Assembly (NCBI GenBank): GCA_034722055.1
Contig: JAYENL010000079.1
Coordinates: 1 to 12,378 of the forward strand
Reading direction: 5' to 3'
Source: Armatimonadota bacterium
Lineage (GTDB): Bacteria > Armatimonadota > Zipacnadia > Zipacnadales > UBA5352
Length of the DNA: 12,378 nt
The translations under genes and the position numbers were made by a program. The notes beneath the pieces are model-generated. The model was not told where the DNA came from. It did no database searches and worked only from the letters and a program-made list of their open reading frames with translations. Shown in pieces: positions 275 through 12,378 of the stretch (positions are counted from its first letter, which is position 1; every line of letters begins with the position of its first letter).

Positions 275-1078
275 ATGCGAATGGTGCGCGGTCTCGGCGG
301 TCAGTGGCGCAGACGCTACATGGGGGCAGCACTGCCCGTAGTCGTGTTCGCGTGTGCCCTCTGCCCTGCGGACACGGGGACGGTGACCTATCCGTCTGCC
401 GGCAACATCGAGATGCGGGAGGGCACCCTCGAGATGTGGGTCAGCATCCCCTTTGACGTGCAGGAGTACCTCCCGTCCGATGAGACCTATCAGGGCCTTC
501 TCGCCATCGCCCGCATCGAGGGCGAGCATGGTACGTTGAGCCTGGGATACTGCGCTGGCGCGATGATGAGGCCGGGGGCAGGGCTCTTCGCGAGTCTCGG
601 CTCTGACCTCGTGCAGCTTCACTCCCTCTCCGCCGGCCAGTTCACCCCCCTGCCGGGCGAATGGCACCACGTAGCCGTGACCTGGTCGGGCAATCGAGTG
701 CGATACTACGTGGACGGCGAGATGCGGGGGGAGCGGGTGACGCTCGCCCCGCTGGCTCAGGCGTTCGGGTCTGTGGGAGCCAAACCGCTGTTGCTTGGTG
801 ACCCGTGGGGCCGGAACGCGCGCATGGCGATCGACGAGCTGCGCGTCTCCTCCGTCGAGCGCGCACCCGAGGAGCTGGGGTGGCACGGCCGGCTGGAGGT
901 CGATCCCTACACCCGTATCCTCGATCGTTTCGACCAGACCTTCGAGATCGACGGCGAGACCCGTACCTCTCCGGAGGTGATCTTCGTCGGCGACGGCGGT
1001 CTGCCGAGCCGACACTGCCGGTTCATCGACGGCCGGTTTGGCGGGGCGCTGGCGCTCTACCTGGGAGGCGGGCAATGA
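275..1078 (+). CDS. Secreted LamG/concanavalin A-like jellyroll domain protein (~267 aa)
   Basis: ORF 113..1078 re-started at ATG 275 (GGAGG at 260-264); ATG 281 or 320 are alternatives. Basic then hydrophobic N-terminus resembles a signal peptide. LamG_3-type motifs: GTLEMWV, GEWHHVAVTW, YYVDG, IDELRVSSVER. Stop overlaps the next start (ATGA, 1075-1078). Confidence 0.8.
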   Translation: MRMVRGLGGQWRRRYMGAALPVVVFACALCPADTGTVTYPSAGNIEMREGTLEMWVSIPFDVQEYLPSDETYQGLLAIARIEGEHGTLSLGYCAGAMMRPGAGLFASLGSDLVQLHSLSAGQFTPLPGEWHHVAVTWSGNRVRYYVDGEMRGERVTLAPLAQAFGSVGAKPLLLGDPWGRNARMAIDELRVSSVERAPEELGWHGRLEVDPYTRILDRFDQTFEIDGETRTSPEVIFVGDGGLPSRHCRFIDGRFGGALALYLGGGQ

Positions 1079-4000
1079 GCGCCCGCAGGCCCTACGTTCA
1101 GGCGCTGCTTTTGCTGGCCTGGCTGGCGCCGGCGGGGGCACAACAGGAGACGGGTTTCGCGGACATGATGTCCCGGCAGCAGAGGCGGGACCATGTGCAG
1201 GCCTGGGCACGCTACGCCTTTATCGGCATTCCGCGCGCGACCGGCGGCCCAGTGGTGGACGGCCAGGTCGGCGTGCGCGAGTGGGGGTGTTCGGCCCAGG
1301 TGGCGCACGCTCTGCAGATGAGCACGGGGGTCGCGGTCCCCGACATGGTGCAGTTCCAGCTCTGCTATACCTCTGACACGTTCTTCGTGTCCTTTCGTGT
1401 CGAGCGTCCGGAATCGGCGCGAGTTCCATCGAGCCGCGACTTCTTCGAGCTGCTGCTTGACGTCGAGCACGATCATGACCGCTACCGCAACATCGCCGCC
1501 ACCCTTGAGGAGATTCTGTGGCACGGCATCGGGCCCAACCTCGATCGCTCCGCCTGGTCGCCGGATGTCGAGTATGTCGCGCGGACGACGTGGTTCGGCT
1601 GGGAGGGAGAGTTGGCTATCCCGTTCGTCGAGTTCGGTCTGGACGGGCCGCCCGAGCCGGGCACTGTCTGGGGCATCGACCTGCTGCGAAATGAGCGCAC
1701 CCCGACGGACCGGCTGGCGCAGGTCGGCTGGCGTTCCACATGGGCGGCCACAAAGGACCTTGCTCACATGGCCTTTCTCGGGCGCCCGCTTGCGGTACGG
1801 GTCGAGGAGATCGGCTGGATGCCCGGGATAAGGCAGATCGGCGCACGGGTCGCTGTCACCAACTTCAGCGACCAGCCGGTAAGCCTGGACGGTCTGGTGG
1901 AGCTGCGGCAAGCCGCGAGGGATCTGCCCATGGGCTTTCTCCCGGCGGTGGACTCGGCGCTGACGGAGGATCTCGATGCCGCCATCGGCTCCAACGCACG
2001 GGCGGAGGTGCAGACGGCCCTGGCTGAGTGGACGGTGCTCGAAAGGCAGGAGAGCGAGCTCACCGTCCCCGCCCGGACCACACAGCATCTGGGACTGGCT
2101 CGGCCGGACGAGCCGGGGGACTACCTGGTGTCCCTCGCTGTGCGGGACGATGAGGCGCTGCTGGCGGCGATGACCGTGCCCTTCGTGGTAACGGTGCCCC
2201 TCGATGTCAGCGTCAAGAGCTACCTGTTCAGCGCCTCCGCTGTGGACTGGACGGTGGATCTGCGACGGGTGCAGGACCTGATCGGCGAAGGGACTGCGCT
2301 CTCCGTGGCAGCCTCGCCCGTCGGGGGGGCCGAGACGGTGGATGCAGTTCGCCAGGACGAGCTAGGAGGATTGCGTGAGGTCAGCGGCACGCTGCGCTTC
2401 GATGCCACGCCCGGTGGAAGCTACGAGATAACGGCAGCGCTGCGCAGAGGCGAGGAGGAGCTCGCGCGCAGCACAACGGCCCTGTCGGTTCCACAGAAGC
2501 CGGAGTGGATCGGCAATCAGATCGGGCGCTCGAGGCTGATCCCGCCGCCGTGGGGGCCGCTGCAGGCCGACGAGGTCCGCACGCAATCGCTGACCGTAGG
2601 CTACGACTGGTCGAAGCCAGCGGTCCTGCCCGCCATCATCGTGAATGACCGTGCGCTGCTTGCGGGGCCCGCCCGACTGGTCCTGAGTGACGCCGAGGGA
2701 CAGGAGCAGCTCATGGCGGTCGATCGCTTCGAGCTTGTCGAGAGCGATGATCTGCACGCGGTGTATGAGATCGGGGCCGCGGCCGGTCATCTGGGCCGTG
2801 TGCGTGCCACAGTCACGGTGGAGTTCGATGGGTTCGCATGGTGGGATGTGACGCTCGAGCCGCACGAAGACGTCACGCTCGGCGGCTGTCGCCTGGAGGT
2901 GCCCCTGCGACCTGAGTATGCCAGGCTGTACACCCGCGGGCGCATGACCGAGGGCCTGGGCGATACCATGCCCCGGGACAGCGGCGTCGGGCGGCTGCCC
3001 GCCGAGGGGCTTGAGCTGCCGTACGTCTTCCAGGTCTGGATGGGATCGGTGGAAGCCGGTCTGCAGTTCTACTGCGAGAGCGCGCGGAACTGGCACAATG
3101 CAGACGACTCCCGGGCGATCCGCGTGATCCCGGGGGCGGACAGCGTCACGCTCCAGGTGCGCTTCGTAGACCGCCCGGTGGAAGTTCAGGGGCCGATGGA
3201 CTGGCACTTCGGCCTCATGCCCACCCCTGCCACGACCCGGGACGGCGGTCTGGAGGATCACGCGTACTTCCAGCTCGGCGGTGTCCCCGCCATGGATCCT
3301 CCGGATGAGGAGCTGCAGGAGACCGACCCGAGGCGCTACCGCGAGCTGCAGCACGGGCACGATCTCGTTCACTCCATACTGGCCGAGCGCGGGGTCAAGG
3401 CGGTCATCCTCTTCAGTTCCTACAACGACGTCTTCGGCTATCCCGGGGTCCGGGACCCCGACAAGCGGGACAAGCTGCGACGGTTCGTCGAGCTGATGCA
3501 CTCTCAGGGCATCAAGGTGCTTGTCTACGCCGGGTGGGGGATAAGCACGGAGGCGCCGGAATGGGAGCGATTCGGGAGTGAGCTGGTGAACCTGCCACTG
3601 CGCAACTCCGGCTACGGCACCTACTGGGCGAGCCCGGTGAGTCTGTTTCCCGACCTGTTCGTCTACCGGCTCGCTGAGCACATTCGCCAGTTCGACCTCG
3701 ACGGAATCTACATGGACAGCACCACCTCCATCAGCGGCTCACTGCACCCCAACGGGATGCGCTGGACGGATGAAGCCGGCAACCGGCGCGGCTCCTATCC
3801 GGTGCGCGCGATGCGTGATTTCACGCGCCGGATATACCGCGTGCTCAACGGTGAGGTGATCGAGGACGGCATCTTCTACAACCATCACTCACCACCCGCG
3901 AATGCGTGTGTCGAGAACTTCGTCACCGTCCGCTGCCCCAGCGAGTTCGCCCAGTTCCACGAGGGGCCGCTTGATGACGCGTTTATCGACTACTTCGTCG

Positions 4001-4518
4001 CCAAGAACGGCGGCGTGCCCTTCGGCTACCATACTGAACTTACCAACAAGAACTGGATGTCGGGGATCGAGAAGTCAATCGCGGAGCTCTACTCGGTCGC
4101 GCTGCCTCTGCAGGTGTCCTTCAAGGCCGTGAACTTCGCCCCCTGGGCCACGCACGACTACTCGCGAATGGCCCAGCCGATGCACGTGGTATGGGACGCC
4201 ATGGCGTGGGTGGACAGCTCCTCGGCGCAGTATCTCCCCTGGTGGGATAACGAGGACTACATCAGCATCGAGCCGACCGACGGGACACTCAGCGCAATCT
4301 GGCTGCAGCCGGGTGAGCGGGCGCTGGTGTGCGTATCAAACCTACCTGACCAGGAACGCGAGTTAACTGTCCGACTTGACCTGGAGCGGATGGGCCTTGG
4401 CGATGCCACGGTCGAGGATGCGATAGTAGGTGAGTCGGTGCCGCTCACCGACGGCACGGTGACCGTGACCATCGAGCCGCAGCGGTGGCGGCTGTGGAAG
4501 GTGCAGGGCGGCCGGTAG
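1075..4518 (+). CDS. Large secreted putative glycoside hydrolase (~1147 aa): N-terminal CBM9-like sugar-binding domain, DUF6067/GH123-N-like middle region, TIM-barrel-like catalytic region
   Basis: ORF 805..4518 re-started at ATG 1075 (GGAGG at 1064-1068; ATGA coupling). Signal peptide MSARRPYVQALLLLAWLAPAGA/QQ. CBM9-like motif WEGELAIPFVEFG..P.PGTVWGIDLLR. Motifs VTVEFDGFAWW, GLQFYCESARNW and FGLMPTP. Barrel-like LRRFVELMHSQGIKVLVY and DGIYMD. Substrate unknown. Confidence 0.72.
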   Translation: MSARRPYVQALLLLAWLAPAGAQQETGFADMMSRQQRRDHVQAWARYAFIGIPRATGGPVVDGQVGVREWGCSAQVAHALQMSTGVAVPDMVQFQLCYTSDTFFVSFRVERPESARVPSSRDFFELLLDVEHDHDRYRNIAATLEEILWHGIGPNLDRSAWSPDVEYVARTTWFGWEGELAIPFVEFGLDGPPEPGTVWGIDLLRNERTPTDRLAQVGWRSTWAATKDLAHMAFLGRPLAVRVEEIGWMPGIRQIGARVAVTNFSDQPVSLDGLVELRQAARDLPMGFLPAVDSALTEDLDAAIGSNARAEVQTALAEWTVLERQESELTVPARTTQHLGLARPDEPGDYLVSLAVRDDEALLAAMTVPFVVTVPLDVSVKSYLFSASAVDWTVDLRRVQDLIGEGTALSVAASPVGGAETVDAVRQDELGGLREVSGTLRFDATPGGSYEITAALRRGEEELARSTTALSVPQKPEWIGNQIGRSRLIPPPWGPLQADEVRTQSLTVGYDWSKPAVLPAIIVNDRALLAGPARLVLSDAEGQEQLMAVDRFELVESDDLHAVYEIGAAAGHLGRVRATVTVEFDGFAWWDVTLEPHEDVTLGGCRLEVPLRPEYARLYTRGRMTEGLGDTMPRDSGVGRLPAEGLELPYVFQVWMGSVEAGLQFYCESARNWHNADDSRAIRVIPGADSVTLQVRFVDRPVEVQGPMDWHFGLMPTPATTRDGGLEDHAYFQLGGVPAMDPPDEELQETDPRRYRELQHGHDLVHSILAERGVKAVILFSSYNDVFGYPGVRDPDKRDKLRRFVELMHSQGIKVLVYAGWGISTEAPEWERFGSELVNLPLRNSGYGTYWASPVSLFPDLFVYRLAEHIRQFDLDGIYMDSTTSISGSLHPNGMRWTDEAGNRRGSYPVRAMRDFTRRIYRVLNGEVIEDGIFYNHHSPPANACVENFVTVRCPSEFAQFHEGPLDDAFIDYFVAKNGGVPFGYHTELTNKNWMSGIEKSIAELYSVALPLQVSFKAVNFAPWATHDYSRMAQPMHVVWDAMAWVDSSSAQYLPWWDNEDYISIEPTDGTLSAIWLQPGERALVCVSNLPDQERELTVRLDLERMGLGDATVEDAIVGESVPLTDGTVTVTIEPQRWRLWKVQGGR

Positions 4519-4524
4519 CAGTGG

Positions 4525-5325
4525 CGAAGCAGCGAGACAGCGGAGACTGCTGAGCCACCGCGACTACCGTGACGATCTGGCGGAGATGGGCGACCGCGTT
4601 TACACCAAAGCGTGATGATCTGCCCCGGAGTCCCGCCGCGCCCGATTGCGCAAAGCGGTGTTGTCATTGACAAGGTGCCGGCGGGCGCGGGCTACCTCCC
4701 GGAGCAGTCTGGTGTCGTCGTCGGGTATCCGGACCCGGTAGGTGTCCAGGAGGCCGCGCGCGAGCGCCATGGCGATAGCCTCCGCATCCAACCGATCGCT
4801 TTTGGAAGTCTTCATGCCCTGGACGAAGCGGTTGCTCCTGGACGGATCGACCATAACGACCTCGAAGCCGCAGTATTAGAGCTCTCTGGCGACGAAGAGG
4901 GACTTGCCGCCACCGGCTTCAAGCGCAACGCGCGTGCCCTCTGTGGCAAAAGGCGCCAGGAACTGGGCGAGCTGTCCGGTGGGAACATCCTTTGGTCGCT
5001 TGCGAACTCCGCAGCTGAGGTGGTCGGCAATCGCTACGGTCGTATTGCGGTCATGAACGTCCAGTCCGATACAGATCATCTTCGGTCCGCTGTACCATCT
5101 CACCAGGCCCTCACGTGCGCGTCTGGACGCGGAGCGGCTCTAACCGCGTCTATCCGGAGGATGCCGCGCCATCTACGGCCCCGCGGCCGGCAACCAGGAG
5201 GCGTGAGCGGGCCAGCACCTGCGGGGCCTCTCGCAGGGAAAGGCTCTGGGCGACGCGCTGGGGCTGGAGTGCCGGGCTGGGCCATGCTCTGAGCGGAGCA
5301 ACCGCCTCAACTTCTGAGCCTCGAC
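4525..5325 (-). mobile_element. Degenerate IS110-family element (boundaries approximate)
   Basis: Transposase remnant plus ~245 bp of non-coding 5' end with hairpins, lying antisense between two + strand genes. IS110 elements typically lack long terminal IRs, so the ends cannot be fixed from this sequence alone. Confidence 0.6.
4600..5079 (-). pseudogene. IS110-family (DEDD RuvC-like) transposase/recombinase pseudogene
   Basis: ORFs 4876..5103 and 4600..4854 are in the same frame, separated by one TAA at 4878-4876 (...ARE-L-*-YCGFEVVMVDP...). DEDD motifs IGLDVH, VALEA and KSDRLDAEAIA are present, followed by the start of the coiled coil (LREVARARRHLV...LRNR). Likely start ATG 5079. The C-terminal domain is largely missing. 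Confidence 0.9.
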
Positions 5326-5343: not shown

Positions 5344-6930
5344 ATGAACAGGACTGCAGCGCTTGCCATCGCGTGCGTCATGGCGTTGTTCGGAGCTTGG
5401 GCTGAAGGTGCCGAACGTTACGTCGCGCCGGATGGCAGTCCGGACAACGACGGGACCCGCGCCGCCCCGTGGTCTCTGGCCCAAGCGAACACGGCTGCCG
5501 GGCCCGGCGACGTGCTGCTACTGTTACCGGGCAGCTATGACACACCGCTGGCACCCGCCGCCAGCGGGGAGCCGGGGAACCCCATCACATTCAGAGCGGT
5601 TGAGGAGCATCAGGCCGTTCTCGGCGCGGGACCGACCGCGCGCATTGCCGCCATCGACGTATCACAACGCGGGCACATCGTCATCGAGGGCATGGCCGTC
5701 CGGGACGTCAAACGTTTCATCGTGGCGATCGGAAGCCATCACATCACCATCAGCAACTGCTGGTTCGAGAGCGGTTCGGGATGGGAATCATGCCGCTTCC
5801 GAGAGAGCGGTGACAGCATCCGTCTTCTCGGGAACGTGTTCCGCAACGGCACGGACCTGGTGAGCATCGAGGGCGGGCGTTTCCACCATATCGAGAGCAA
5901 CCTATTCGACCGGGCCAACCACACGTGCCTTACGCTGATGGCCGTCGAGAACTCCGTGATCCGCAGAAACACCTTCCGCAACGACCTGATGAAGCTCGTG
6001 GAGGTCTTCGCGGGCCGAGAAGGCCGGCCTGTCGCCGGCAGGCCTACGCGGCACACGCTCTTCGAGGGGAACCACTTCGCCCACACCGCCGACTACACCA
6101 AATCCGGCAGCTCGTCAGTCTGCATGACGCTGTCGGGCAAGTCAGTCATTGTCCGCCGCAACCTCGTGACGGATTGCCAGGCGGGCTTCTACCTGTTCCT
6201 GAACCGGGGCAACATCGAGTCCAACACCTGTGAGGGCAACCGCATCTGCCACAACGTCGTTTACGGCTGCGGTCACGGAGGGGCCTTCAAGTACAACGGC
6301 CTGGCGTTCATTGTCTGTGGGACAGGGGCGACCTTCGGCGACAACATCGCGGTGAACAACGTGATCTTCGGCAATCGCCACGCGGATGGGCGGCATTTCC
6401 AGGGCTTCCCCGCCACAACGCAGATCGGCTATCACGCCGGCGCGCTTCCGAAGGACCTGCAGCTATTCAGCAACGTGATCGTCAGCGAGAGGCCCAGCGA
6501 ACCGGTTATTGCATCCATCACCTCCGGCAGACGGCAGTACACGCTTGCCGAGTTCGAGCACGCTCACCCTGCAGCCGCCGCCGGGAATGTCAATCTCGAT
6601 CCGGGCTTCGTCGACGCGGACAACTATGACTTCCGGCTGCGCGACACCAGCCCATGTATCGACGCCGGCCGTCCGCTCACGACGGCAGTGGAGGCTGGGC
6701 AGGGAACGCTGCTGCGGGTGGGCGACGCCACCTGGTTCACCGATGGCTATGGCGTGATCGAGGGCGATATGGTCCGGGTCGGCGAGCAGCGGGCGAGAGT
6801 GGTCCAGGCCGACTATGCGGCCGGAACTCTGACGCTCGATGAGCCGTTGCGGTGGACGGCGGGCAGCGGTGTCAGCTTGGACTATCACGGCAAGGCGCCC
6901 GACATCGGTGCGGTGGAGATGGGACACTGA
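5344..6930 (+). CDS. Secreted right-handed parallel beta-helix (pectin-lyase fold) protein, 528 aa
   Basis: GGAG at 5332-5335. Signal peptide MNRTAALAIACVMALFGAWAEGA. N-terminal YVAPDGSPDNDGT..APW...AGPGD.LLL.PG.Y motif. Repeated 'I.NC.F / I..N.F' beta-helix rungs. C-terminal DPGFVD...DFRLR..SPCIDAG and G.APDIGA.E motifs. Confidence 0.85.
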   Translation: MNRTAALAIACVMALFGAWAEGAERYVAPDGSPDNDGTRAAPWSLAQANTAAGPGDVLLLLPGSYDTPLAPAASGEPGNPITFRAVEEHQAVLGAGPTARIAAIDVSQRGHIVIEGMAVRDVKRFIVAIGSHHITISNCWFESGSGWESCRFRESGDSIRLLGNVFRNGTDLVSIEGGRFHHIESNLFDRANHTCLTLMAVENSVIRRNTFRNDLMKLVEVFAGREGRPVAGRPTRHTLFEGNHFAHTADYTKSGSSSVCMTLSGKSVIVRRNLVTDCQAGFYLFLNRGNIESNTCEGNRICHNVVYGCGHGGAFKYNGLAFIVCGTGATFGDNIAVNNVIFGNRHADGRHFQGFPATTQIGYHAGALPKDLQLFSNVIVSERPSEPVIASITSGRRQYTLAEFEHAHPAAAAGNVNLDPGFVDADNYDFRLRDTSPCIDAGRPLTTAVEAGQGTLLRVGDATWFTDGYGVIEGDMVRVGEQRARVVQADYAAGTLTLDEPLRWTAGSGVSLDYHGKAPDIGAVEMGH

Positions 6931-7469: not shown

Positions 7470-8420
7470 TCAGTGGGCGCGTTGCGCAGATGTCCGCCTT
7501 ATGTAGTAGGTGTGGCCTTCGTAATCGGTCTCGACAAGCTTATCCTGGTCGATCAGTTCCTCGATCGCAGCCCAGTCAGCGCCGGTGCGCTCCAGCACGT
7601 TTTGCACCGCCTGCTGGCGCATCGGATGAACGGCAGTGATGCTCAGTATGTCCTCGGCCACGTTGCCGGTGGAGGCGAATGCATTCCCTTCGTAGCCGAT
7701 CAGGTACTCAGCACCGGCAACCGCCCCCGCGATGATCTGGTAGTAGCGGTTGATGGTGTGCTCACTGGGCAGGCGCACCCAGTCCTCCGCCGGAGGCCGC
7801 GTCGGGATGGACACGTAGGCCTTGGCGGGGGAGAGATCGCTCAGGAAGTCGGCCACCTCTGTGGCATGGCCGTCGCTGTCGTTGAGGTCGGCGACGAGCA
7901 TCGTCTCGGTCGCAAGCTCTCCGGTGAAGGCCTCCGCAAACTTCAGGAGGCCATCAAGGATGGTGTCAAGATCAAGGGATCGATGGGGCCGGTTGTGCCT
8001 GCGCCAAGTCTCCTCTCGCACCGTGTCAACCTTCACCGACACCCAGTCGGCCCTCATTAGCTCCTCCGCGACATCCGGCCGCGAGACCAGGGACGCGTTG
8101 GTGATAACGGCGATCTTCCTACCGAGAGGGCGCAGCATCTCTATCTCCTCGCCGAGATGGATGTCCAGAGTTGGCTCGCCATCCGGCACCAGCGTGAGAT
8201 AGTCGATGCGCTCCCCCGCCGCGGTTGCCCGTTCGACGCTCTCCGTGACCTCTGCGCTAATCTCGTCAGGGTCGTAGAACGTGGTGCGCTCTGACTGCAT
8301 CTTCAGTGTGCGACCCACCTGGCAGTACACGCATGAGTAGGTGCAGGCTTTCGGCGGGATGTTGTTGATACCCAGGCTCTGTCCGAGGCGTCTCGACGGA
8401 ACCGGTCCGTACGCGATCAT
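7470..8420 (-). CDS. Radical SAM protein, COG0731 (TYW1/wyosine-synthase-like Fe-S oxidoreductase) family, ~316 aa
   Basis: Family signature YGPVPSRRLGQSLGIN, CxxxCxxC motif (CTYSCVYC), DGEPTL, AVITNASL. Start re-placed at ATG 8420 with GGAGG 8 nt upstream. Actual reaction not inferable. Confidence 0.88.
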   Translation of the reverse strand: MIAYGPVPSRRLGQSLGINNIPPKACTYSCVYCQVGRTLKMQSERTTFYDPDEISAEVTESVERATAAGERIDYLTLVPDGEPTLDIHLGEEIEMLRPLGRKIAVITNASLVSRPDVAEELMRADWVSVKVDTVREETWRRHNRPHRSLDLDTILDGLLKFAEAFTGELATETMLVADLNDSDGHATEVADFLSDLSPAKAYVSIPTRPPAEDWVRLPSEHTINRYYQIIAGAVAGAEYLIGYEGNAFASTGNVAEDILSITAVHPMRQQAVQNVLERTGADWAAIEELIDQDKLVETDYEGHTYYIRRTSAQRAH

Positions 8421-8474
8421 CGGCTTGGCCTCCCTCACGTCAGTAGCGGGATGTGCAGACCCGTCCAGGTGAGG

Positions 8475-9515
8475 CTACTCTCTGCGCGTCTCGCCACCCA
8501 TGCCAACACCGGCGACGGACGCGCCACAATCCGGACACGTGTCGTTGGATGCTATGCGATTCTCGATGACAGACATGCCTGCGCGGCGGATGAGCACGCC
8601 GCCGCAGGAATGGCAGATGGTGTCGGTCTCCTCCAGCACGTTGCCGACGTACACGTAGCGCAGCCCACTCTCCACACCGATATCTCTTGCCTCCCGCAGC
8701 TTCTCCACCGGGGTTGGCGGCACGTCAGTCATCTCATAGTCGGGAAAGAAGCGACTGACGTGCCAGGGGGTGTCCACGCCAAGCTCCTGTGCGATGAACG
8801 CCACCGCGTCGGTCAGTTCCGCTGTGTCATCGTTGATCCCGGGGATAACCAGCGTCGTGACCTCCAGCCAGATCCCGAGCGACTTCATTCGCTTCATTGT
8901 ATCCAGGACGGGCTGAAGCTGGGCGCCGACGTATTCCCGATAGGTGCTGTCACGGAAGGCCTTCAGGTCCACGTTCGCTGCACTGAGGTAAGGCTGGAAA
9001 GTCTCCAGCATCTCCTCCGTCATGTAGCCGTTCGTCACGTAGATGTTCTCGAGACCCGCGGCTTGACCACGTCTGGCCGTATCGTAGCTGTACTCGAAGA
9101 AGATGGTCGGCTCCGTGTAGGTATACGCAACAGACCGGCAGCCGGCATCAACCGCAGCCTTCACGACATCCTCAGGACTTGCCTCGGTGCCGGAGAGGAT
9201 GTCACGATCGCGGGGCATCTGCGAGATCTGCCAGTTCTGGCACCAGGGGCACCTGAAGTTGCATCCCGGGGTCGCGATAGAGTAGGCGGTGGATCCGGGA
9301 TAGAAATGAAACAGGGGTTTCTTCTCGATGGGGTCAATGTGCTGAAGGACCGTGCGCCCGTACACCAGCGTGTAGAGAGTACCTCCCCGGTTCTCGCGAA
9401 CGTTGCAGATTCCTTTTCGGCCCTCCGCAATCGTGCAGCGGTGCGCACACAGATTGCAGCGCACGCGCCCATCCGAGAGCCGCTCGTAGAGCATTGCCTC
9501 TTTCACACTTGCCAC
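8475..9515 (-). CDS. amrS: AmmeMemoRadiSam system radical SAM enzyme
   Basis: N-terminal CNLCAHRC...GICNVREN, diagnostic DPIEKKPLFHFYPG, CNFRCPWCQNWQISQ (CxxxCxxC), AYTYTEPT, NVDLKAF, LEVTTLVIPG.ND, WHVSRFFP.Y, GLRYVYVGNV, and C-terminal CHSCG/CPDCG. The start may instead be GTG 9506 (MKEAMLY). Confidence 0.93.
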   Translation of the reverse strand: MASVKEAMLYERLSDGRVRCNLCAHRCTIAEGRKGICNVRENRGGTLYTLVYGRTVLQHIDPIEKKPLFHFYPGSTAYSIATPGCNFRCPWCQNWQISQMPRDRDILSGTEASPEDVVKAAVDAGCRSVAYTYTEPTIFFEYSYDTARRGQAAGLENIYVTNGYMTEEMLETFQPYLSAANVDLKAFRDSTYREYVGAQLQPVLDTMKRMKSLGIWLEVTTLVIPGINDDTAELTDAVAFIAQELGVDTPWHVSRFFPDYEMTDVPPTPVEKLREARDIGVESGLRYVYVGNVLEETDTICHSCGGVLIRRAGMSVIENRIASNDTCPDCGASVAGVGMGGETRRE

Positions 9516-9601: not shown

Positions 9602-9886
9602 TCAGTCGCAGCACTTCGCGGCCAGGCGGATCACCTGCGTCAGGCACTCGTCAGTGAGCCTGTAGCAGACTCGCTTGCCCTTCCGCTCCGGCGTGACCAG
9701 CCCGCGCTCGCGAAGCTCAGCAAGGTGCTGGGAGATGTTCGGCTGGCTCCGATCCAGTATCTCTCCCAGATCCCGCACACAGAGCTTCCCCTCCAACACG
9801 TTTGCGACCAGACTCAGCCTAAGTGGGTGCGCGAGTGCGCCGAAGAGCCCGGCCAGCTTCTCGTAATCCTCCGCAAGCTCACGCAT
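9602..9886 (-). CDS. ArsR/SmtB-family transcriptional regulator, 94 aa, Cys-rich with C-terminal CC
   Basis: F.ALAHPLRL, LCVRDL, SQPNISQHLAELRERGLV..ERKGKRVCYRL. ATG 9886 has a strong RBS (GGAGGAG, complement of 9894-9900). Cys at 36, 74, 81, 92 and 93. Confidence 0.93.
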   Translation of the reverse strand: MRELAEDYEKLAGLFGALAHPLRLSLVANVLEGKLCVRDLGEILDRSQPNISQHLAELRERGLVTPERKGKRVCYRLTDECLTQVIRLAAKCCD

Positions 9887-9930
9887 AGAACCACTCCTCC
9901 TGTCCGCCACGGGACTGCTCCCGCCGCCCC

Positions 9931-9958
9931 TTGACATTGCCGCACCAGGTGCTATATT
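9931..9958 (+). promoter_or_regulatory. Sigma70-type promoter firing rightward, toward the isomerase-like gene
   Basis: TTGACA (9931-9936), 16-nt spacer ending TGC (extended -10), TATATT (9953-9958). Confidence 0.7.
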
Positions 9959-9960
9959 CA

Positions 9961-9970
9961 TATGCGCATA
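9961..9970. promoter_or_regulatory. Palindrome TATGCGCATA, candidate ArsR operator core
   Basis: Perfect 10-bp palindrome in an AT-rich patch between the two promoters and upstream of the ArsR gene. ArsR/SmtB proteins usually autoregulate at inverted repeats near their promoter. Confidence 0.55.
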
Positions 9971-10019: not shown

Positions 10020-10224
10020 GTGCCGGGTCGTGTCGATCGATACCTGCCTTATCGTCCGCCTTTCGAGCGCCAAGCAGGCGTCGCGCGGTGAGATCGCGGC
10101 GGAGTTTTGACGGGACAGGACTACTGGGAGGAGGTCGGCGACCAGCAGAGCATCGAGATGGTCCGGACGGCACGCGACGAGAGCAATGAGAAGGCATCCA
10201 GCGCCGGATGATGAGGTGAAGACA

Positions 10225-11508
10225 ATGGCGACGACCATTCGCACTGTCTACCTGTCAAAGGACATCGGGAAGCCAGGCTGGCCGAACAAGGACTTCGACC
10301 CCAACGAGAGAGCGAACCAGTTGGAACGCAGGCTGGGCTCGCTGCAGGACCGACTGGACTTCGAAGTGAGTTCCACCGGAGCGCATATCGTGACTGATGC
10401 CACTGACGTCGCTCACCTCAAGGAAACCATCAGCGAGGATGACGACGGCCTGCTGCTGTTCATATTGGCCTCGGGGGCCCAGCCACACCTCAATGAGATC
10501 GTTGACATCGGCCTTCCCACAGTCAGCTTCATTGACCTGTTCGGCTACTTCGTGCTGTCGGTTCCCGACAATGTGATCGGCATTTCGTCGTCGGATTTCA
10601 CCGAAATCGCCTCTGCGCTGAAGGCCGTAGACACCGTGCGGAGGCTCAGCGCGTCGAAGATCGTCTGTGTGAGCGACCGTAAGGACGTTTCGAGCTACCG
10701 GAAGCAGGCTCGAGATCAGTTCGGAGTTGAGATTGAGCAGGTCGGACATGAACCCCTGCTATCCGCCTACGAGCAGGCGGACGAGAGGCAGGCCGAGGAG
10801 ATAGCTGCTGAGTACATTACCAACGCCGAGAAGGTCGTGGAGCCGACCAGGCAGGATGTGGTGGACGCCGCAAAGATTTACCTGGGGATCCGCGAGTTGA
10901 TGGTCGATGCCGAGGCGAACGTGATCACCGTGGACTGCCTCCCGCTCACCTATGCGGGCACCCTCCCGGCCTTCCCATGCCTGGCCTTCTCCCGGCTCAA
11001 TGATGAGGGGCTGGTCGGTGTCTGTGAGGCGGACCTGGCCGCGACCCTGACCCAGATGCTGGTCGGCTATCTGGCCGACCGTCCGGGCTTCGTCTCCGAT
11101 CCGGTGATAGATACCTCAACCAATACGATCATTCACAGTCACTGCGTCGCCGCCACGAAGATGGGTGGTATGGACAGCTACCCCGAGCCCTACATCCTCA
11201 GAAGCCACGCAGAAGACGATGAGAGCGTCTCGCTGCAGGTGAAGATGCGGGCCGGCGAGCAGGTGACACATGCCAAGCTGGCCGACTTCGACACCATGGT
11301 GGTGGCGCGGGGCAAGACGGCCGGCAATGTTGACATCGACAAGGGCTGCAGGACCAAGGTGCGCATGGTAGTTGATGATGCCAGGAAGCTTTACGACAAG
11401 TACCGCGGGGGGCTGCACCGGGTGATGTTCTACGGTGACCTCGTGCGACAGGTCGAGGACCTGGGCACGCTTCTCGGCTTCGACGTGGTCGACGAGTGTC
11501 AGGGGTAA
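10225..11508 (+). CDS. L-fucose/L-arabinose isomerase-like protein (~427 aa)
   Basis: Start re-placed at ATG 10225 (GAGGTG at 10213-10218). Motifs PCLAFSRLNDEG..GVCEADL, GFVSDP, HSHC, GCRTK and GLHRVMFYGD match the FucI/AraA-like fold, with candidate metal ligands E, D and H. Substrate unknown. Confidence 0.75.
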   Translation: MATTIRTVYLSKDIGKPGWPNKDFDPNERANQLERRLGSLQDRLDFEVSSTGAHIVTDATDVAHLKETISEDDDGLLLFILASGAQPHLNEIVDIGLPTVSFIDLFGYFVLSVPDNVIGISSSDFTEIASALKAVDTVRRLSASKIVCVSDRKDVSSYRKQARDQFGVEIEQVGHEPLLSAYEQADERQAEEIAAEYITNAEKVVEPTRQDVVDAAKIYLGIRELMVDAEANVITVDCLPLTYAGTLPAFPCLAFSRLNDEGLVGVCEADLAATLTQMLVGYLADRPGFVSDPVIDTSTNTIIHSHCVAATKMGGMDSYPEPYILRSHAEDDESVSLQVKMRAGEQVTHAKLADFDTMVVARGKTAGNVDIDKGCRTKVRMVVDDARKLYDKYRGGLHRVMFYGDLVRQVEDLGTLLGFDVVDECQG

Positions 11509-11591: not shown

Positions 11592-11617
11592 TGACCGCCC
11601 CCCATTCTTCGGACCAG
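11592..11617. repeat. IS3 right terminal inverted repeat
   Basis: TGACCGCCCCCCATTCTTCGGACCAG: begins 5'-TG like IS3-family ends and abuts the transposase stop codon. The partner IR is outside the window. Confidence 0.75.
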
Positions 11618-11646
11618 TTACAGTGAGAGGGTTGCGGCCTCCCTGG

Positions 11647-11695
11647 CGCTGTGGGGGCGGAGGGAGGGCGTAGCCCGACCGGAGCCCCCACAGCG
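11647..11695. repeat. GC-rich stem-loop near the IS3 3' end
   Basis: CGCTGTGGGGGC (11647-11658) / GCCCCCACAGCG (11684-11695), 12 bp perfect, with inner GGGC-GTA-GCCC (11666-11676). Confidence 0.75.
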
Positions 11696-11901
11696 TGCCG
11701 CCTCCACCTCCCCCTCCCGCCACTGCTGTGCAAACTCCACCGGTGTGAGATATCTCAGGGAGCTGTGCGGGCGCTCAGTGTTATACTCCTCCCGCCACGC
11801 CTCGATCACCACCCGCGCCTCCTCCAGGTCCGCGAACAGCTCGCAGTTGAGGCACTCGTCCTTGAGCTTACCGGTGAAGCTCTCGATATACGGATTCTCC
11901 C

Positions 11902-11921
11902 GGCGGATCATCCCATCCGCA
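11902..11921. repeat. Short palindromic insert GGCGGA-TCATCCCA-TCCGCA
   Basis: Sits between the codons for PGS and ENPYIE. There are 23 nt where 6 (Pro-Trp) are expected. Confidence 0.85.
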
Positions 11922-12011
11922 GGCTGCCCGGCGTAATGTAGATCGTCTCGCACCCCTCCTGCTCCAGCCACTCGCGCACCGCCCTCGCGATGAACTCCGA
12001 CCCGTTGTCGA

Positions 12012-12031
12012 GGCGGACGCCAGCGTCCGCA
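12012..12031. repeat. Short palindromic insert GGCGGA-CGCCAGCG-TCCGCA
   Basis: Adds ADAGVR between HIR and LDNGSEF. Removing 12013-12030 restores HIRLDNGSEF. Confidence 0.85.
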
Positions 12032-12378
12032 CGAATATGCTCGGGCCTGCCACGCGTCAGCGACAGCCACGTAAGCAGATGTACCACCGCCTCGCCGCTG
12101 ATGCTGCGCGCCACCTCAATCGCCAGGCACTCCCGCGTGAACTCGTCCACCACGCTCAGCACACGCAACTGTCCGCCGCGCTCGGTACGGTCCTCGCAGA
12201 TGTCATAGGTCCACACGTGATCGGGATGCGTTGCTCGTTGCTCTACCTCGCCCTTAGGGCCATATGCGCGCTTTGTGCGCCGCCTGCGCCGCAGGTCCAG
12301 GCCCTCCTCTTTCCAGATGCGGTGCACCCGCTTGTGGTTGACCGGCCAACCCTCCCGTCGCAGCAGCGCCCAGATGCG

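Follow-up and report, generated by a model that had tools for sequence, protein, structure and literature searches.

Short hairpin modules in an IS3 transposase gene of Armatimonadota and their recurrence in related genomes

What could place two short palindromes, alike in their arms, in the catalytic core of a single transposase gene? The window that raises this question is a stretch of 12,378 nucleotides that corresponds to contig C79 of the Armatimonadota genome G000, and it ends within the orfB gene of an IS3 element. We compared this element with its relatives in other genomes and in the contigs of five sequencing runs, of which X1 to X4 are from one study, possibly including the source of G000, and X5 is from another.

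Two insertions in the IS3 orfB

The features of the element in the window, including two sites that are filled only in relatives, are as follows (a slash marks the point of insertion).
11592..11618, minus strand: right end of the IS3 element with its terminal inverted repeat, joined to several different flanks in run contigs
11618..12378, minus strand: catalytic part of the IS3 orfB, from its 3' end to the contig end, which cuts it
11778..11780, minus strand: site D (YN/TxRPHS), empty in the window; hairpin insert of net 17 nt in X4
11902..11921, plus strand: site-C module (PGS/PWEN), consisting of G, an 18-nt hairpin (11903-11920) and A
11943..11949 (approximate), minus strand: site B (xT/xxIxPG), empty in the window
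12012..12031, plus strand: site-A module, just before the second catalytic Asp (D-N-G), consisting of G, a perfect 18-nt hairpin (12013-12030) and A

Both micro-inserts of the original prediction are where it had placed them, and the exact pattern GCGGA-N8-TCCGC is matched twice in the window, compared with a mean of 0.08 in shuffled sequence (0 of 200 shuffles reached two). As had been proposed, the site-A module adds a net 18 nt in frame before D-N-G, and the site-C module, which replaces three target bases, adds a net 17 nt and breaks P-W with a frameshift and a TGA stop inside the module (11908-11910, minus-strand reading). In a frameshift-aware alignment these two modules are the only lesions of the window orfB, and orfA and the start of orfB are intact on contig C90, which overlaps C79 by 127 nt. 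At these positions, homologues from other phyla have R-S-D-N-G and P-G-S-P-W-E-N and no inserts, which bears out the catalytic motifs that had been recognised.

The analysis confirms that the two 20-nt pieces were truly inserted into an IS3 orfB that is intact in all other respects. Contigs of X1, X2, X3 and X4 contain both inserts without gaps, and the X5 allele, which spans the region in one contig, has neither of them; over 431 nt it differs from the window by 46 other letters and 35 gap positions. The X4 allele is a relative with 34 differences and a third hairpin (net +17, at 11778-11779 in site D), and the differences between X2-X4 and the window are patchy. An adapter or assembly artefact is ruled out by the gap-free contigs of four runs, by inserts in independent genomes and by the empty X5 allele. 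Alignment with empty alleles from X5 and from relatives further revealed that two to three target bases are lost and that none are duplicated.

The original prediction had described fixed arms around a variable 8-nt core. The arms are present, but the core is not all loop: since both inserts fold into hairpins with a stem of 6-8 bp and a short loop, the eight interior bases belong in part to the stem. The 11902 insert has a 6-bp stem in the window and a 7-bp stem in X4, in which C>G at 11914 completes the seventh pair, and the 12012 insert has a stem of 7-8 bp, with predicted loops of 2-4 nt across both. Net insert lengths vary (+16, +17 and +18), and an Rfam search gave two matches, both far under threshold.

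There are hints of several IS3 copies. Several flanks join at 11592 in the run contigs, and the depth of the IS in X1 and X2 is approximately three times that of its flanks, although depth is not copy number and right-end-only fragments also occur in G000. A comparison of the IS3 flanks on C79 and C90 identified no common duplication. Copies of the last 70-120 nt of this IS3 are located in G000 at C288:49439-49560 and 49984-50102, C74:1-97, C185:4429-4546 and 7715-7783, and C14:1-96, and possibly represent a right-end mini-element; one X1 contig contains an IS3 right-end piece in tandem. On C90, the left flank of the IS3 adjoins a frame with an NPPY motif (634-1500), which is likely to be a DNA methyltransferase or restriction-modification gene. 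Elsewhere in the window, the frames at 805-4518, 5344-6930, 7470-9515, 9602-9961 and 10186-11508 encode products that, judged from sequence only, include a large carbohydrate-active-like protein, a beta-helix lyase-like protein, two radical-SAM proteins, an ArsR-type regulator and a sugar-isomerase-like protein.

Recurrence at four IS3 sites and a wider hairpin class

The comparison set comprised 33 distinct IS3 alleles from G000 and its relatives, fewer of which span each site. Site A is filled in 5 of 21 alleles, site C in 6 of 23 and site D in 5 of 25; site B is filled in 4 of 21, in each case by a double hairpin of 44-45 nt. Elsewhere in 12.9 kb of IS3 sequence there are three insertions of at least 12 nt, none with a stem longer than 4 bp. 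Outside the lineage, 79 IS3 loci were taken, 71 of which span the core, and 0 of the 71, which come from other phyla, has such an insertion. Named records that bear inserts are from Ca. Zipacnadia or Armatimonadota: the site-C pattern had 14 matches in genome contigs, three of them in IS3 and all three in Ca. Zipacnadia, and two of the five matches to the site-A pattern are in IS3, both in Armatimonadota. In a metagenome pattern scan, 1 of 20 matches is an IS3.

In an IS3 tree built with the insert sites masked, filled alleles are intermixed with empty ones, with filled site-A alleles in three clades, filled site-C alleles in two, and branches of UFBoot 98-99 between them. Filled alleles from outside the window's clade share 54-67% identity with the window sequence, and one clade is a mosaic in which the occupied sites are A, B, BC, ABC, CD, ACD, D or none. 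A degenerate site-C insert in L100 (G010), detected by blastn but below the score cut and on an artefactual long branch, was excluded from the counts. Stems vary among IS3 alleles by compensatory changes, and each site has its own stem family; site D holds two different stems.

No target-site duplication was found at the examined junctions. In the empty alleles closest to those filled at sites C and D, A-C-G stands in place of the module, such that three bases are replaced there, and at site A and in REP arrays the module replaces two to three bases. Module ends are C/A on one strand and mostly C/C on the other (slash at the junction), and the same flanks can enclose a loop of either orientation. 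A conserved CCGTR coincides with sites C and D and is lacking at sites A and B, and two further conserved CCGTR positions in orfB are always empty; a preference for 4-5 nt is therefore insufficient to explain the four sites. The possibility that the inserts are the excision footprint of a larger element lost ground in a half-site search for site C in 79 genomes, which gave 12 matches in 10 genomes, five of them in IS3, all with short inserts and none with a long one.

The two inserts are members of a lineage-wide class of 17-21 nt hairpins in Armatimonadota with the form GG-(7-8 bp stem)-CA, within which they belong to different stem families. The single fixed-arm element of the original prediction does not hold. 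The shared 6-bp arms at N8 spacing are only modestly over-represented in G000 (13 matches, compared with 0-11 at 30 other spacings). Much of the excess among 87 genome matches to a fixed-arm N8 element is explained by 37 REPs of one family, and the remaining matches follow codon periodicity. It is the wider class that is enriched. Among non-coding hairpins of 17-19 nt, GG..CA is the top flank class (102) and TG..CC the third (85), whereas no flank class exceeds 50 in coding DNA. Likewise, GGAGA-N9..11-TCTCA has 26, 41 and 29 matches, whereas ten other spacings have 3-17, and GGAGA-N7-TCTCA forms another peak, of 79. A tighter GAGA pattern in 301 genomes has 41 matches in G000, 15 in G005, 5 in G040 and 1-2 in each of seven more.

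Members of this class also differ in presence between otherwise comparable sequences. Self-comparison of G000 revealed modules of 14-21 nt that are present or absent between REP-array copies. One host gene has an in-frame +18 module (C77:41953-41973) that 6 of 6 orthologues lack; another (C38:12083) has a module that is missing from the orthologue in G001. Another transposase, at C306, appears from its reading frames to have been frameshifted by a module. An alignment of G000 with G001 over 1.30 Mb (100 of about 770 contigs, 87% identity) contained 64 indels of 9-60 nt. Three of them are clear GAGA modules, one is a double module and two are hairpins of a less clear kind; in each of these cases the extra sequence is in G000. 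Frameshifting of host genes on a genome-wide scale was considered and rejected: 54 of 5931 in-gene hairpin calls are at a frame change, many of these at gene junctions. From these counts, host genes contain a few modules per Mb, with the clear ones in frame, and IS3 cores contain more than one per kb, a comparison that is confounded by selection. The modules are not confined to mobile genes.

In terms of copy number, the class as a whole is abundant and mostly extragenic, whereas the site-A stem occurs 10 times and the site-C-type core in 5 places in G000. A REP-like family at C82:43241, C104:136, C132:18854 and C27:7499 of G000 has constant flanks and interchangeable compensated stems, and stems like these make up the second of the two hairpins in the site-B insert. 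Its first hairpin (L457-L564) is a dispersed repeat that turned up in 108 stretches spanning many phyla, including Fibrobacteria, Acidimicrobiia, Anaerolineales and others, with no RAYT match within 800 nt.

Origin of the modules

Empty alleles, repeated sites, and copies in host genes and REP arrays together favour an ultra-short mobile element and a recurrent process, which was among the options first put forward. More specifically, our best explanation is that the modules are hairpins of REP origin without a tag, and that a RAYT/HUH enzyme inserted them. We infer RAYT-driven insertion, with confidence that is evenly balanced, because the stems are shared with REPs of relatives and because of the cut sites given in PMC8266576: those of a TnpA-REP are CT and CA, and with a GTGG guide they become CA and CC. 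On single-stranded DNA, a RAYT resident in the genome (an HUH tyrosine transposase) would move such hairpins, cutting at C/A or C/C beside the stem and inserting preferentially at sites with a tag-like CGT/ACG sequence, and short recombination at conserved stretches may later have carried the modules from one IS3 copy to another. The window transposase would now be dead, and its element mobile in trans only.

Several findings are relevant to this proposal. The 7-bp stem at site A is identical to that of a GTGG-tagged REP inverted pair around the RAYT gene L293 (G017), and G000 contains a RAYT 56% identical to L293, 37 REPs of that family and six Y1 transposases. The site-C stem, together with the bases next to it, recurs in a REP-like family of G028, in a context common to 7 of 10 loci; at the RAYT loci of G028 the stem was found in 0 of 7. 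In addition, modules come and go between copies of a RAYT-flanking repeat at L450 (G040:C166), with the GAGA module located inside the repeat and not itself constituting it. At this locus the RAYT has flanking direct repeats, two of which bear a module with flipped loops (AA and TT), and a third copy is empty. RAYT genes occur in 17 of 18 family genomes, and so near-universal a distribution does not discriminate.

Further points count against the RAYT explanation: REP singlets are argued to be immobile remnants in PMC3116915, the loss of 2-3 bases and the variable junctions are a poor fit to clean HUH strand transfer, and the inserts have no intact tetranucleotide tag. Nor does it account for the recurrence at four conserved IS3 codons. 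For that recurrence, it is tempting to speculate that a targeting system writes hairpins of up to 20 nt into the most conserved IS3 codons, with a family for each site, although we hold this only tentatively. A nuclease or RNA-guided recombinase, of the small GIY-YIG/Ssn type or the IS110 bridge type, would recognise IS3 codons and write or copy the hairpin; the outcome, equally doubtful, would be either a selfish, cargo-free homing unit or a heritable host scar that disables the IS3. The same four codons are filled across clades that are 54-67% identical, with a stem family for each site, and the codons surrounding the second Asp of IS3, the position of site A, are the target of ISEc21 (PMC11187229). 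In relatives, genes for small GIY-YIG proteins occur at tRNA-Met together with a hairpin of 18 nt, but that hairpin differs from the modules, and no small GIY-YIG gene was found in G000, G005 and G007 or in the incomplete assemblies of G001 and G010 (in G000, 93% complete, the sole match has 637 aa). Furthermore, modules that host genes carry in frame, and others within REP arrays, argue against a scar directed purely at insertion sequences, and it is the four-codon preference that keeps targeting in play. Among the loci concerned, L570 (G008:C23), L579, L580 and L581 have a tRNA-Met, a 94-aa GIY-YIG gene and then a tRNA 3' fragment in which the 18-nt hairpin takes the place of 8 nt; among 61 genomes of the order, 14 contain homologues. 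Two IS110-like genes are present in G000. The window has an N-terminal remnant of an IS110-family transposase (4600-5103, minus strand), which was rejected as a module carrier, as it has a TAA stop and a truncation but no hairpin module. A distant Transposase_20 match, L199 (G000:C98), is located in a phage-like region with tandem repeats upstream.

Targeting would be needless if each site had received one old insertion that then spread by short gene conversion between divergent IS3 copies, as mosaic occupancy within one clade, the patchy differences among X2-X4 and the window, and the compensatory variation of stems would allow. We regard this as unlikely, and as workable at the most conserved stretches only. 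Against it, the flanks remain specific to each clade to within a few bases of the junction, which leaves less than 10 nt of homology for conversion, and site D holds two different stems. Since neither the first insertions nor the host-gene modules are explained by it, conversion can only supplement another mechanism. Far less probable is that the modules are tiny introns or ribosomal bypass signals in a transposase that still functions, despite their location at conserved sites, the otherwise intact orfA and orfB, the roughly threefold depth of the IS in X1 and X2 (again, not a copy number), and the 14 synonymous versus 9 non-synonymous codon differences between the filled window and X4 alleles. 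Contiguous deletions of 14, 17, 20 or 23 nt at site C never yield P-W (those of 17 nt read L-R, R-R or I-R-R), net lengths vary, and the synonymous bias lies in patches common to the empty X5 allele. Just as improbable is an artefact or a local mutation in which a tandem duplication was perfected into a palindrome. Filled site A does resemble a degenerate repeat of I/V-R-x-D-x-G, but the same stems occur in unrelated flanks and in REP families elsewhere, and site C has no duplication and matches the G028 repeat family; inserts in independent genomes and in the contigs of four runs speak against artefact.

Our verdict is that the modules are real and lineage-wide, and probably a new form of tiny mobile hairpin repeat, of which the IS3 site preference is the most interesting part. 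The spread of REP-type repeats is described as unresolved in PMC8266576. The modules represent single insertion events that can be dated, with alleles of both states, known junctions and, in the same genome, candidate enzymes, and so make the mobility of REP singlets testable. The recurrence at four codons points to an unrecognised target rule or a transposon-disabling mechanism, and in-frame modules add six-residue loops to host enzymes. If the targeting reading were true, the modules would rank with the smallest mobile DNAs that are directed to a site, and, should the pattern also hold in other phyla, they would represent a general, undescribed layer of transposon control.

Relation to known systems

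No printed description of such modules was found in a literature search drawn largely from papers outside subscription and from main texts, and PMC10290634 makes no mention of transposition, palindromes, repeats, mobile elements or CRISPR. Like the REP/REPIN/BIME repeats associated with RAYT, as described in PMC3733652, PMC8266576 and PMC3116915, the modules are GC-rich hairpins of 7-8 bp that occur in arrays and as in-frame copies in genes; their stems are common to REPs of relatives, and their C/A and C/C ends fit the reported cuts. Unlike REPs, they have 17-21 nt, are tagless and single rather than paired, cost the target 2-3 bases, and occupy fixed IS3 codons. No constant tag of the GTAG type precedes the stem on its 5' side; one strand has just TG, and some sites have CGTG, partly derived from the target. 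A REPIN is an inverted REP doublet, whereas modules are single at A, C and D, and site B has two different hairpins in tandem. A MITE has terminal inverted repeats, a target duplication and a parent transposon, whereas the modules entail base loss without duplication and have no long form at site C. Because the tests of tag, doublet and duplication fail, we do not file the modules as REP, REPIN or MITE.

The palindromic elements of Rickettsia are not known to have an IS3 site preference. These elements are longer than the modules and, like them, are palindromes read through in frame in functional genes, according to PMC3733652. ISEc21, an IS110-family element with a seekRNA/bridge RNA, has the site-A position of IS3 as its target, but according to PMC11187229 it is a full-size element with a transposase, a guide RNA and one target, whereas here there are four sites and no such element was found. 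The Ssn GIY-YIG single-stranded DNA nucleases with NTS/SRM hairpins (PMC11893778, in part) likewise tie a short hairpin to a small ssDNA enzyme; their hairpin sequence is different, and, although Ssn-like genes do occur in the order, no small GIY-YIG gene was found in G000. Insertion activity of Ssn is not reported in the accessible part of that paper.

Modules are slightly shorter than the small dispersed repeats (SDRs) of Nostoc, and come from another phylum with another sequence, a link to REP/RAYT and fixed IS3 sites. Those SDRs, on which Elhai and colleagues are said to have reported in 2008, are reportedly hairpins of about 21-27 nt with compensatory changes, confined to one lineage, moved by an unknown agent and nested in other repeats and mini-transposons. 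By analogy, the modules appear to behave like a REP singlet or a Nostoc SDR.
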